From a virus (taxonomy: Duplodnaviria; Heunggongvirae; Uroviricota; Caudoviricetes): a stretch of DNA of 42,303 nucleotides. A program made the position numbers. Position 1 is the stretch's first letter. The number at the start of each line of letters is the position of its first letter. The stretch lies in the IMG/VR virus record IMGVR_UViG_2851976983_000005. One strand, given 5' to 3'. This document shows positions 1 through 6,000 of the stretch, in pieces.

Positions 1-3000
1 ATGATTTTTAGGGATAGCTTGAGAGTATTACCTTATGGTCGAGTAGATAATGATTTCTTCCAGATAGAAGAAAGACGTTCATGGAATGCAGGGCGATATT
101 ATTGGTCTAATAGAAGGATTTTTGGTTATATTGGAATTACTCAATCCAGTAATAAAGAGCTGAAAGATAAGTCGGGGAGAGAGGGATTCATAAGAAACCA
201 GGCTGCAAGAGAACTGAAAACTATTATATCTAATTTGTTAACTGAACTTGCTGATAGATTTTTTGGTTCACGTTCTGATGACCGTAAAGAGCTTTTAGAA
301 CAAGTTAAGCGTGAAAAAGAGTTAAGAAAATCTGCTCAACAACAAGCTCGAAAATCAACACAAAAAAGTTTTTCAGAAGCTTTGAAGAATCAGACACCAG
401 TTCTTGATGCTTCCTTGGAGGCTGTTAAAAGGCTGAAAACTAAGCTTGATAAAACTGATGGTTCGTTAGATTTAAACTATCTTAAAATTATAGACAGTGA
501 TCTTACAAACTTAGATGCGTTGCGCAGTGAAATTAAAACGCCTATCAAACCTCCAAAACTTGGAATGTATGAAGAGAAATATAGAGACTACAGAGATAAA
601 TTTAATGAGTTCTCTGCGTATATTCTACAAATGAAGTTAGCAATTAATAAACTTGATTCTGAATTAAATAAACTTGAGCCTTCATTGTCAGCGAAAAATC
701 ACCTTGAAAAAAATCAAGGTATTATTAATTCTAAACTAACTAAGTTTAATAACACGATAGAGGAGAAGATACATTCTCTTTTAAAAAAATGGGCCGATGA
801 AATAAAGGTTGATCGAAGTGATTATTATGCTAAAACTATATCAGTTGTTGATTCAATAGATAATGATTCACAAATTGAAAATGTGTTTAATTTGCTCGAT
901 AGTTTATATGTTGAGTCAGTTGATACCCTAACTTTCAAATATCAATCAATAATAAAAGGTCTCGATAGATTATTTGAAGGTATAAACTTAGATTCAGCAT
1001 TCTCATTATCTGAAGAAGAACGCTCATATTTTGAAGAAAAAGCTAAAAGTTTAAACGCGCTTGCACAGTTAGGTATTAGTGTTGAGATAATATCTCATGA
1101 ACTTGAAGAAATGGATTCTATGGTAACCAGAGGACTAAACTCTCTTCCTACTTCTGTAAAAGAACACCCTGGTTTTTCATTGGCGTTAAATGCTCACAGA
1201 TCGCTTACTCAACAAATACGTTTCTTATCACCTTTGAAAATATCAGGTTATCAATCCAGGCAGAGAATAACTGGAAAAAATATCATGGATTATGTCCTGA
1301 AGTTCTTTGGGGAGCGTTTCGAACGGCAACGAATAACTATTGAATTTAGTGAAGAGTTTAAGCAAATCGCAATAACAGATATACCATCAAGGATCTATCC
1401 TGTTTTTACTAATATTATCAACAATGCAATGTATTGGGTCAGTCTGTCAAATAATAGGCTCATAAAGATTGGTTTTGTGAATTCTTTGGTTATCATAGCA
1501 AATTCTGGTCCGGCAATTGATACCGATGATATCCCGCGACTATTTGAACTATTTTATAGCAAAAGAGCAAATGGACATGGGGTAGGTCTGTATCTATGTC
1601 GAGAAAACCTTGCTGTTGCACATCATAAAATATGGTATTCAGAACCTGATGAAGGCGATAACTATTTAATAAAAGATGGCGCTAATTTTGTGATCCAGTT
1701 CAATGGAGTGGAGTTCTAATATGACAGTGGCAAATTATAATTCTCTTGTCCAGAAAACTTTCTGCGAAAATGCAATTCGTTCCGTTGTCATGATTGATGA
1801 CGATTTTCTGACGTATTCTGAATCAATCAGGGCGTTGAATAACGAAGTTGATTTAGACTACAACAAAATTGACTCATCTAAACGAGCCGCTACTCTTGAG
1901 AGCTTTTTTCAATCTAAAAATATGATTTGTGATGTTGACAATGGTTCTGTTAATTTCGATGTGGATCGGATTAGAAAATCAGATCTTATTATTGTAGATT
2001 ATCATCTTGATAATAATGCACCTGATAAAACACTTAAACTATTACAAGATTTGAAAGACTCCGATCATTTAAATATGATTGTAATATATACTAGAGAGAA
2101 TTTAGAAACGGTTTGGATGCAGATATCATCGACTCTCAAAGGTGCTCTGGATATCAACAGCTTGATCATTGACTACGATAATGAAGATGTCCAAAGTTAT
2201 TGGGAAGACGTTGTATTACCGAACTTAAATGATAATGGTAATAAAGCTCTCACAAGAGATGAAACAATAGCCTATATTAAAGACAGTAAGCCTTGTAGAA
2301 GAATTAAAAGATTAATACATGATGATGCTGTGTTGGAGGATCAAAAGGATAAAAACTTCATTGCAAAAATGATTGCAGAATATGCTGTGTCTAGAAATGC
2401 AATTATTTCTAGCAACACATCTGGCAATGTCATTCGGGGTGATGAAAGCGGAGTAAAATGGATTCAATGTGGTAATATCTTTGTCTCCCTATTTCATAAG
2501 GTTCAAGATGATCATGAAAACGATGGAGATAGGATTTGGCAAACTCTCAATGATTCTCTCATTGAATGGAAACCATCTTATTATCAGTTAATAAAATCTG
2601 AAATTCAGAATGCAATCGAAGCTGAGGCTTTATCTTTTGTAAATCATTTGGCTAACGATCATTACGGTCAAGCTGCGTGGTTAAATGAGATATTAAAATC
2701 AGACTCGCCAGATATTAGATGTAGAAATATTGACTTTGTATTTGGTAATTTATCAGAAGAGCTTTATCAAAGACTTAAAAATAATAATACGCTGGATGAA
2801 TTTATCAAAAGTGTTTTTGATAGCTATTCAAATGAATACGCTAACAGCGGAGTTGCTGCATTGCTCCAATATTGCTCTTCAAAAATGGATCTGCCATCAA
2901 ATAATGATACTTATCACGAAATGTATCATGCTTTAAATATGAATTTGTCTTCAAAGAATTTTGAAGATGGTCATATTTCTACTGGCACTATTTTCTTTGA

Positions 3001-6000
3001 TACAGAGTCGAACAAATGGTATTTATGTGTATCTGCGGCATGTGATTTGGTTCCTACTCAGGGTAACGACCCTCACCATGTAAGATTAAGTCCGCACAGG
3101 CTCATTAAAGTTCTGGAGCTTTTTAACGCCAGTCAGAGTAAAGCATTGCCATTTGCTGAACATTCGAAATATATATATGTAATGCATAAAAATCAAAGAA
3201 AATATCTCTCTATTTTCGAAGGGGATAAAACGCTTCCTGTTGTTGATTATATGGTGGTGTTGAATCATGGAACAACAGTTGATGGCGAAGAAAAAAATAT
3301 TATTTCTGCCGTGTTTTTAAGTAATATGGATGGCAACGTGCAAAATGTTCCTGTCCGACTCAAACTTAAATCTCAACTGAGAACTGGTTATGCAGAAAGA
3401 TATCAGGCTATAGCGTCTCAGTATAGCTCAAGGATTGGTGTGGATTATGTATCAATGATGCTACCATAATTATTATATTTTAGGCGTGGTGATTTTTTTT
3501 CGCCATGCCTATTTTATATTTATCATCACAATGATGTTGTTTATTTTTGTTTAAGTCTTCTAAGCTTCATGCATTCTAATGAGAATAATAATAGAGTTGT
3601 GCTGTATATAAAGCCAGAGTTAGTTAATAACTTTAAATTTAATGCTTCAGGATTTTCACTGAGAAAGTGAAAGGCATAAACTAAGTATACAGCTAAAGTA
3701 GCCGTTCCAATTGTTGGTCCAATATCGCCTTGATCATGAGGTTCAAGGTTTACATTGAACTTGAAGATTAGCCATTCAAATCCCCAAGTAAAAAAAACAA
3801 CTAATATCATGGCTGCGAATAATTTCGCGATGTTATCTGCTGATGGATTCATCAGAACAGATTGTTTCTGAAAAAATTCACAAAGTGAGAGTCCGAAAAA
3901 AATAAAAAAAAGTGGTCTGGAACTAAATTTTTCAAAAACTTTGAATAGGGTTTCCATTTTCTTTACCTTCAGGATTATATTAGCTATTCTGATACTTAGG
4001 CTACCAGAGCATTTGATCTTTGAGCTTGAACGTAATCACTCCACCATTGCATCAAACTCTGTCGCTCTATCAGATATTCTGCACGATTGTATGCTGCGAT
4101 AATTTCATCTTTTTTCGAGTGGGCAAGCGCTGCCTCAAGAACTTCAGCTCTGAATTTACCAGACTCCTCTGCCGCTGTTCGTGCAATAGAACGCATACCG
4201 TGAGCTACAAGCTCGCCTCCGAACCCCATTCGGATGATAGCTGCGTTGGCTGTTTGTTCATGCATATGATTAAGAGGCGCTTTTATGCTGGGGAAAACCC
4301 ATTCTCTATGCCCACTTATTGATTTCATTAATTCAAGGATGCGCAAAGCTTCTTTACTCAAAGGAACTTTGTGAAGCTTTTTCATTTTCATGAAATCAGC
4401 AGGAATGTTCCAAATGCTGTTGGTTGTATCAATATCAGACCACCTTGCGCGAACGGCTTCACCCGGACGAACCCATGTCAACAATTGCCATTCAATTAGC
4501 ATACGTGTTTCCAACCGGATTGACGCATTCGTCAAAGATTCCATAAACCTTGGCAATTCGCTTGGGGGAAGGGCAGGCATATTTTGCTTTTTTGGTTTAC
4601 TGAATCTTTGACCAAGGTTGTCAGCCGGGTTGAACTCAATAAGTTCTTCAGTAGCTGCCCACCGGAAGATTTCATTCAGACGTGAAATGATACGGCGTAG
4701 AGTTTCCAATACGCCTCGTTGCTCAATAGGATCAAGGTGTTGTTTTAAGAGCTTAGGTCGGATCTCATTGATAGGGACATTACCCAGACCGGGAAAGACA
4801 TTTCTCTCTAAGCTGCGCCAGATGTCTGCTGCATGGTCTTGTGAGATACCTGATGTCTTTACCTTCTCATCTAACCATTTCCGCGCTACGGCTTGGAGAG
4901 TGTGCTCAGTAGCACTCTTTAATGCCTTCGCCTTATCGTTGTTATGGATTTGGGGATCAACACCATTTGCCAGAAAGGAGAGATATTCATCACGTAAGGC
5001 TCTGGCTCTTGCAAGGGTAAGGTGAGGATATGTCCCAAGGCTCATTTTGGTTCTTTTCTTGCTCACTGGTACTGCATACCTGAAATACCAATTTTTCTTG
5101 CCTCCTTTCGCCAAAGGAGCGATTCGTAGAATCAGACCATCACCGTCAAACAAGTTGATTTCTTTATCGGCTGGCTTGGTGCTTTTGATTTCAGTGTCAG
5201 TGAGCTTCTTAGCGATTTTTGCCATTTTGGGACCCTCGGTTTTTGGACCCTTCTTAGTGGGTCCCATTCAGGGTGCCATAACTCGTAGTTCTCAGCAATT
5301 CTCACTGGACGACAATAGACGTAAAAAAGCCCGCAGAGCTTGTGCTGTGTGGGCTTAGTAGACTTCATTGAACTTCAAACAACTAAAAAGTGGTGGAGCT
5401 GGCGGGAGTTGAACCCGCGTCCGAAATTCCTACATACCATTTTCACTATAGCAAAAACATTAACTTGCGTTTAAAATCAGCAAGTTAGTATTATCTTGTG
5501 TTTGTCCGTTTTACTCATTTTTAATGCTCTGTCGCCAATCTGTCGCCATTGTAGGTCAACGAAGGTTGAGCCTTCCCTTTGTTTGTTACAATTTCATCAA
5601 AGATAGCTGGATTATTATCTTTCAGTAATCTTGCTAGTATAATGATTTGCCCAGACGAGCCATCATCCTTGAATGAAAGGAAATTATCGGTAATATCAAG
5701 AATATCAATGGTAAATTTGAAGTAGGTTTCAATTGTATCGCCAAGTTCAATGCTGGACATGAAGTTAGTAATCATTTCATATCCATCAAAGTATAAAGTT
5801 GCATGTTCATTTAACTCCATGGGAGTTAGGCAAAGCATTCGATTAAGTTCGGATAAGTGTTTTTCTATTGAATGAAGAGATTGCATTTGACGGATTAAAA
5901 CTTCGTCAAACTGAGAGCCACGATTAGATGAATTTATCTTCTCTAGGTTTTTTAGTATATCAACCCAGTGATTATTTACTTCACGTATGTATTCTTTATC

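Follow-up and report, generated by a model that had tools for sequence, protein, structure and literature searches.

The kinase-like gene and the receiver gene

The sequence analysed in this work is the IMG/VR virus record IMGVR_UViG_2851976983_000005 (Caudoviricetes), and its whole stretch of 42,303 nucleotides (nt) is referred to as the window. Two genes on the plus strand occupy the left end of the window (positions 1-3469), which are a kinase-like gene (open reading frame 1, ORF1; 1-1719) and a receiver gene (ORF2; 1721-3469). The gene pair probably represents the 3' remnant of a three-gene module that is already known, and the copy in the window is most likely an inert and slowly decaying relic. 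The stop codon of ORF1 is located at 1717-1719. The longest frame of ORF2 opens at 1703, and the ATG at 1721 is the start in the PGAP annotation and in all homologs. With that start, the two co-directional genes are separated by a gap of 1 nt and ORF2 encodes 582 amino acids (aa). The G+C content is 32-35% over positions 1-4000 compared with 45-59% in most of the remaining window. The preliminary description of this locus had reported two co-directional, AT-rich genes with this spacing, which agrees with the ORF list, the start codon and the base composition.

ORF1 is a 3' fragment that corresponds to codons 420-991 of a kinase gene of about 991 codons, as identified by Pfam and by BLASTP against a 991-aa relative (locus L002). 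The alignment with residues 420-991 of that relative is gapless and shows 88% identity. The HEF_HK domain (PF19191) was identified at ORF1 residues 356-414 (nt 1066-1242) with 26.1 bits against a cutoff of 24.1. The motif ISHELEEM lies inside this domain, where the phospho-acceptor H366 (nt 1096-1098) is followed by the acidic E367. The HATPase_c domain was identified at residues 462-553 (nt 1384-1659; E 1.8e-11), and NIINNAMYW, GPAID, and GHGVGLYL are all located within it. [quoted passage not shown] The H366-E367 pair and the N, G1, F, and G2 boxes are invariant in the family alignment of eight diverse members. The G1 box (residues 501-504, nt approximately 1500-1512) reads N-S-G-P in the clade of enterobacterial and Acinetobacter members, intact relatives included, and the canonical D-x-G-x-G aspartate is retained in a paralog from Escherichia coli SE15 and in a member from Acidobacteria.

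ORF2 is an intact Response_reg_2 gene. The Response_reg_2 domain (PF19192) is located at the N-terminus of the protein and scores above the curated cutoff (E 3.7e-31), and the remaining residues (about 400) have no Pfam annotation. The receiver pocket consists of the acidic pair D26/D27 at the end of beta1, the acceptor D93 (nt 1997-1999) at the end of beta3, T124 at the end of beta4, and K260 after beta5, and these pocket residues are conserved. The kinase-core and receiver motifs had been read correctly in the preliminary description, since the profile searches place all three domains above the Pfam cutoffs. Its statement that ORF2 has no recognisable output domain and no helix-turn-helix (HTH) is also upheld by the lack of any Pfam match past the receiver.

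Truncation of the kinase gene and its upstream junction

Positions 1-20500 of the window are 100% identical to E. coli strain 503440. There, the end of an IS3 element lies 121 bp ahead of window position 1. The region beyond IS3 consists of the ygaQ (alpha-amylase) pseudogene followed by the core glaH-lhgO-gab genes. The frame of ORF1 is open upstream for only 40 further codons, which run through the 121 bp to the IS3 terminus. Because the frame is open only up to the end of IS3 in an identical genome, ORF1 is cut off in the genome itself and not just by the window. The preliminary description had assumed that the island continues upstream of the window and had envisaged an additional receiver gene there. 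Neither is found in the identical genome, where IS3 and the ygaQ fragment (ygaQ') are followed by core genes. The start codon of ORF1 is Met420 of the full-length kinase, and a scan between the deletion junction and this ATG found no promoter-like site.

The deletion junction joins ygaQ' to the kinase fragment (13620-14879 in locus L001 and 2733-2745 in locus L025). The same ygaQ' junction was found in every copy that was inspected, which includes O26:H11, LY180, and porcine, bovine, human, and avian isolates. IS3 is present at the junction in the six fully annotated copies that were inspected. The junction also occurs without IS3 in 70 complete genomes, mostly of O111 type, and its flanking bases fit neither a clean insertion nor a clean excision of IS3. 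The simple account in which an IS3 insertion truncated the gene was softened on these two grounds.

Positions 1-3469 are present at an identity of at least 99% in 561 of the 5426 complete E. coli genomes (approximately 10%). This wide distribution is explained by one ancestral event that is common to the clade, as the junction is identical. The missing methylase gene and the N-terminal part of this kinase allele were not found in any complete E. coli genome. This E. coli locus has for years been in GenBank (AJ304858), with the description 'remnant integrative element' and a product named 'histidin kinase-like protein'. The locus in the window is a relic of a published family that is common by descent to about one tenth of E. 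coli genomes.

Intact relatives of the gene pair

The homolog search with ORF2 identified 108 proteins of 580-645 aa that share one architecture. The closest relatives are 87% identical and are located at the same smpB/ssrA site with the same kind of integrase adjoining. Their complete operon consists of a 389-aa C5 DNA methylase, a 991-aa kinase, and a 582-aa receiver protein. The 991-aa kinase of L002 has HATPase_c_3 at residues 28-139 in addition to HEF_HK and HATPase_c. The same triad, with a kinase of about 980 aa, was also identified in Pantoea, in an integrative and conjugative element (ICE) of Salmonella, in a Tn7-like element of Acinetobacter, in an ICE of Acidobacteria, and in an ssrA islet of Klebsiella. 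The intact triad spans 3884-9759 in the ssrA islet of L002 and 5852-11752 in the Salmonella ICE (L004). The kinase and receiver genes are adjacent and co-directional in all relatives that were examined, and the C5 methylase is present in every intact one. Among these relatives, an HTH gene lies beside the triad only in the Acinetobacter locus and an HNH gene only in the SE15 paralog. One close relative (L016 5015-7999, a Logan contig) has a split kinase, with a 214-aa HATPase_c_3 ORF and a 715-aa HEF_HK/HATPase_c ORF, which is either another independently disrupted copy or an assembly error.

A complete paralogous system of four genes was identified in E. coli SE15 (L009; NC_013654.1 4541494-4548686). 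It consists of a C5 methylase, a 989-aa kinase, a 607-aa receiver protein, and an HNH 'phosphorothioated DNA-binding restriction endonuclease', and it adjoins ArdC and MobH genes. Paralogs of the SE15 type were identified in approximately 212 complete genomes of E. coli.

In the full-length kinase, a GHKL ATPase of the MORC/MutL-like kind makes up the N-terminal half. It matches the PADLOC family 'REase_II' (E 1.6e-9 to 5e-13), and the neighbouring methylase matches 'MTase_II'. Standard tools would therefore label the intact system as type II restriction-modification (R-M).

The gene pair family was already described in 2021 and is not a new system. The preliminary description had raised a new phosphorelay-based system, and this proposal gives way to the earlier report in which PF19191 and PF19192 were built from this gene pair (Bellieny-Rabelo, Pretorius & Moleleki, 2021; Genome Biol Evol, PMC8011034). 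In that report, the kinase and receiver genes are linked in 91.6% of cases across 644 regions, and the predominant 'group 1' architecture (HATPase_c_3, HEF_HK, and HATPase_c) accounts for 174 of the 222 members. C5 methylases and R-M genes are over-represented nearby, a link to paraMORC ATPases is drawn, and the examples include an E. coli protein. The recurrence of the triad in the relatives agrees with this linkage and with the methylase association. A literature search on GHKL and receiver domains with methyltransferases in anti-phage defence returned nothing relevant.

Constraint on the E. coli copies

A long-branch test was performed with a third allele as the outgroup, and the E. coli branch was compared with the branch of an intact relative. 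The E. coli branch acquired 97 nonsynonymous and 205 synonymous changes, which is indistinguishable from the 68 and 134 changes on the branch of the intact relative. The equal ratios imply that most of the divergence predates the truncation and that the truncation is recent.

The polymorphism among nine E. coli copies, a small sample that was taken partly from the most divergent matches, consists of 13 nonsynonymous and 3 synonymous changes. This ratio differs from that of the long E. coli branch (Fisher p = 1.2e-4). The changes include a nonsense mutation (Q567*) and substitutions at positions conserved in the family (N66Y and G89D in ORF1; N118K in ORF2). Three strains carry a pair of frameshifting indels in the receiver gene, which is flagged as a pseudogene by PGAP. 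Taken with the lack of a promoter-like site, the polymorphism pattern indicates that the E. coli copies have been under relaxed constraint since the truncation.

The receiver protein's C-terminal domain

The structure of the ORF2 protein was modelled with AlphaFold2 from an alignment of 38 sequences, with a predicted local distance difference test (pLDDT) score of 84.6 over its full length and of 83.9 when residues 262-582 were modelled. In the model, the receiver is split by a large helical insert (residues 128-226, approximately) and is followed by a helical bundle (268-410) and a beta-rich domain (approximately 411-566; nt 2951-3466). The C-terminal region exhibits five invariant residues (C441, R554, R571, G573, and D575) and a near-invariant D442. 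A standard transcription-factor output in this region, which the preliminary description had named as a refuting outcome, was not found.

Foldseek with the full model against the PDB returned nothing at E <= 0.001, with only weak flavodoxin-like and receiver matches, and the family profile had no match among PDB sequences. Pfam at E <= 1 on the 38 family members identified no domain in the C-terminal 400 residues, PemK_toxin and CcdB included. No HTH or other DNA-binding domain was identified in the C-terminus, either by Pfam on these members or by the fold search. The alignment of the beta-domain profile with MazF, Kid, and ChpBK sequences by hhalign gave a probability of 0.13%. A profile search over 1.84 billion representatives identified the beta domain in 604 clusters at 50% identity, where it lies nearly always behind Response_reg_2; the shorter matches have no Pfam domain and may be fragments.

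The modelled fold suggests, as a lead, that the beta domain might be a MazF/CcdB-like toxin-fold effector, although the chances stand rather against it. The link to MazF is one of fold only, with no support at the sequence level. The conserved C-terminal domain of the receiver protein now has a concrete structural hypothesis. As many triads have no separate nuclease gene, a C-terminus of the ORF2 type is the most economical candidate for the effector.

Interpretation of the locus

In this E. coli lineage, the kinase gene was probably fused at about its codon 380 to the ygaQ pseudogene by a deletion, which took out the methylase gene together with the half of the kinase that contained the ATPase and sensor. 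An ORF that starts at an internal Met and has an intact kinase core, an intact receiver gene, and its terminator are left over. With the sensor and the methylase lost, the copy in the window is most likely a relic with no active defence. The preliminary description had proposed a signalling-type defence module. The kinase and receiver pair, its horizontal acquisition, and the defence-like context of the family bear out one part of that proposal; the other part fails for the window copy, which is truncated and exhibits signs of decay.

Several points weigh against an inert relic. ORF1 and ORF2 are still intact in most of the approximately 561 carriers, and every kinase-core motif is preserved in the E. 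coli copy. On the long branch, the ratio is the same as for the intact relative, and the truncation is recent, so residual function may persist, and the size and choice of the nine-copy sample limit the polymorphism comparison. Moreover, 34 of the 222 family members in PMC8011034 have no N-terminal ATPase, and a form with only the kinase core might work.

These points are taken furthest in the explanation that the locus is a still-functional minimal module of two genes. The kinase core would be translated from the internal ATG and would phosphorylate the receiver-effector, and selection would keep the pair in about 10% of E. coli. The intact ORFs at high identity in the carriers, the conservation of H366, of the N, G1, and G2 boxes, and of the receiver pocket, the terminator, and the family members with no N-terminal ATPase are all in line with it. 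However, the start codon is merely Met420 of the full-length protein and has no promoter-like site upstream, and both the methylase and the sensor are missing. The excess of nonsynonymous changes, the nonsense codon, and the frameshifts within E. coli also argue against maintenance by selection, and the spread is already explained by the one ancestral event with an identical junction. We consider a functional minimal module clearly improbable.

An ordinary chromosomal two-component pair that controls transcription is scarcely tenable: the catalytic domain of ORF1 has weak similarity to many sensor kinases in NCBIfam and some database names call the homologs 'transcriptional regulator', but the NCBIfam scores are far below the cutoffs, Pfam and the fold search give no DNA-binding domain, and the AT-rich genes are carried by islets, ICEs, and Tn7-like elements and were found in only some 10% of E. 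coli genomes.

While the E. coli copy is read as a relic, the intact family may be an uncharacterised form of methylation-gated phosphorelay immunity. The intact fusion protein consists of a MORC-like GHKL ATPase (paraMORC), a coiled coil, and the HEF_HK DHp with HATPase_c, and it would act with a receiver protein of about 585 aa. In the mechanism proposed for the intact module, the methylase would mark self DNA and the N-terminal MORC-like ATPase would engage unmodified incoming DNA. The DHp histidine (H366 in the numbering of the fragment) would then be autophosphorylated, and the phosphate would pass to D93 of the receiver. The receiver would in turn free the C-terminal domain with its putative MazF/CcdB-like fold, which may be a toxic or nucleic-acid-targeting effector. 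We regard immunity of this form, in which a MORC ATPase-kinase senses unmethylated DNA and the receiver carries a toxin of the MazF/CcdB fold, as possible but unlikely. Two points count against the mechanism: some relatives carry a separate HNH nuclease, so that the receiver protein may be a regulator or an adaptor and not the effector, and no experimental test of any member of this exact family was found in the searchable literature. If this reading is true, self/non-self marking of the R-M type, two-component signalling, and a toxin-type effector would be combined in three genes. As a weaker corollary of this reading, the E. coli remnant could still give some activity from the kinase core to the receiver.

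Neither a defence system nor a Detocs variant should be scored for the locus in the window. The labels 'ATP-binding protein' and 'response regulator receiver domain' hide the truncation and can inflate the counts of 'group 2' members, which have no N-terminal ATPase. The C5 methylase/paraMORC-kinase/receiver triad, a compact unit that is widespread and is borne by mobile elements, is a candidate defence system. The four-gene paralog of SE15 is a better experimental target than the remnant in the window.

The ssrA islet and the adjoining prophage

A strong hairpin resembling an intrinsic terminator, with a 12-bp stem followed by a T-run was identified by the terminator scan at 3481-3511 on the plus strand (L001 18481-18511). 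It starts 12 nt past the stop codon of ORF2 and marks the 3' end of the operon. The next gene in the ORF list (3541-3957, minus strand) encodes a hydrophobic membrane protein of 138 aa that has no Pfam, PADLOC, or NCBIfam family. At the equivalent spot, L002 and L017, two close relatives, do not have this ORF, and their integrase directly follows the receiver gene. The 138-aa ORF is cargo of the islet and no conserved partner of the module. The P4/CP4-57-type tyrosine integrase of the ssrA islet is located at 3996-5267 on the minus strand (3996-5225 and 409 aa in PGAP), with the Pfam domains Arm-DNA-bind_3, Phage_int_M, and Phage_integrase. A 45-nt copy of the 3' end of ssrA, which forms an attachment (att) site, lies at 5391-5435 as an exact direct repeat of 41244-41288. 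The second copy is the end of the transfer-messenger RNA (tmRNA) gene at 41244-41606. A small membrane protein and a P4-type integrase beside an att repeat, as seen in the preliminary description, are thus all present.

The region from the att repeat to the deletion junction consists only of the integrase, the 138-aa ORF, ORF1, and ORF2. No P4 satellite core gene or site (primase/alpha, psu, delta, sid, or cos) was identified in this region. The earlier suggestion that the gene pair is cargo of a P4-like satellite or island therefore holds for the P4-type integrase at the tmRNA att site and does not hold for the other satellite core genes. The tblastn search against the phage collection identified only two records, both of which include the same E. 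coli chromosomal flank, and the search against plasmids identified only two distant matches; on this evidence, the module belongs here to neither phages nor plasmids.

The ssrA site is occupied in tandem. A P2-like prophage of about 36 kb (5436-41243) is inserted between the tmRNA gene and the older islet with the P4-type integrase, and the att repeat at 5391-5435 divides the old islet from this later insertion. In LY180, which has no such prophage, ssrA directly adjoins the islet integrase.

Several other features of the prophage were observed. A SEFIR/TIR protein of 477 aa (PADLOC bSEFIR, E 1.2e-102) is encoded by an AT-rich cargo gene at 16539-17972 (plus strand), which has a DinI-like gene on one side and the portal gene on the other; both this defence gene and the P2 hotspot in which it lies are already known. 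An ORF of 309-348 aa at 5521-6567 (minus strand), flanked by the ssrA att repeat and the P2-like integrase, encodes N-terminal transmembrane helices. It has a weak PADLOC match to '2TM Effector' (E approximately 1e-4) and no Pfam family, a DUF4760 protein is found there in other strains, and the ORF may be cargo of the prophage end. According to the annotation of the identical genome, IS100 (IS21-family istA/istB) at about 13565-15366 interrupts the P2 replication endonuclease gene, so the prophage is probably defective. Beyond about 31050 (to 42303), the window differs from strain 503440, which means that the source strain or the prophage arrangement differs; in place of the window's ssrA, strain 503440 seems to have the 2TM gene a second time.

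Comparison with known systems

The closest correspondence is with the HEF_HK/Response_reg_2 family. ORF1 and ORF2 carry both Pfam domains above cutoff in adjacent, co-directional genes. The members are cytoplasmic proteins in which the kinase has a C-terminal HATPase_c and the receiver has no other known domain, as is the case here. ORF2 also has the acidic pair, acceptor Asp, Thr, and Lys, and ORF1 has the His-acidic DHp. The locus differs from 'group 1' of the family in that ORF1 has no HATPase_c_3 and the window has no methylase or R-M gene, which is attributed to the deletion. PMC8011034 includes no analysis of the receiver protein's C-terminal domain, which is modelled here as a helical bundle and a MazF/CcdB-like beta domain.

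The beta domain of ORF2 differs from MazF, Kid, PemK, and CcdB in that it has no sequence-profile similarity to them and no antitoxin partner and is fused to a receiver and helical bundle that precede it. Scans of the window proteins with PADLOC and NCBIfam gave no meaningful family, and all NCBIfam scores were far below the cutoffs. The MADS system was also considered; its preprint describes no kinase or receiver components and the system was set aside.

Detocs requires the tetratricopeptide repeat (TPR) kinase DtcA, the standalone buffer receiver DtcB, and DtcC, a receiver fused to a purine nucleoside phosphorylase (PNP) (Rousset et al., 2023; bioRxiv 10.1101/2023.01.24.525353). The preliminary description raised, as one of two options, a Detocs-like variant with no buffer receiver. 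The analogy is one of working logic, in which a kinase-like protein on a mobile island phosphorylates a receiver whose fusion partner is an effector and not a DNA-binding domain. However, no standalone receiver like DtcB was found in the window or in the operons of the intact relatives, and there is no PNP-type ATP nucleosidase, no profile similarity, and no significant PADLOC match to Detocs for either window protein. The sensor of the relatives is a GHKL ATPase and not a TPR protein, and the third conserved gene is a DNA methylase. A Detocs system or a variant of it is most improbable at this locus, and the earlier assignment is abandoned.

The full-length relatives resemble the paraMORC GHKL ATPases of R-M operons (Iyer, Abhiman & Aravind, 2008; Biol Direct, PMC2292703). 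They share a GHKL module at the N-terminus whose ATP-binding motifs are intact, an extension of great length at the C-terminus, linked cytosine methylases, sometimes HNH nucleases, and a location on mobile elements. They differ in that PMC2292703 describes no histidine-kinase core or receiver partner, and the copy in the window has no GHKL module.

Ambrosia consists of an XRE regulator (AbrR), an N6-adenine methyltransferase (AbrA), a histidine kinase/HSP90-like ATPase (AbrB), a receiver protein (AbrC), and an HNH protein (AbrD); all genes and the receiver aspartate are required for defence, and transcriptional control has been proposed (bioRxiv 10.1101/2025.09.30.679545). The methylase of Ambrosia is specific for N6-adenine whereas that of the relatives is specific for C5-cytosine, and AbrB has 747 aa compared with about 990 aa. 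Most of the triads studied have no XRE regulator or HNH gene, and neither is present in the window. AbrC, a classical Response_reg protein of 209 aa, gave no BLASTP alignment better than E 6.9 with the 582-aa ORF2 protein. The N-terminal 399 aa of AbrB exhibit distant homology to the full-length relative (E 2e-10, 27% identity). A second motif with the shared 'RIYRD..PYG' matches at E 1e-5, and only this second motif falls within the window fragment. Ambrosia is the nearest experimentally validated analogue of the intact module. Both combine a methylase, a putative GHKL/HATPase_c double ATPase, and a receiver in one cluster, and an HNH gene is also present in the SE15 paralog.

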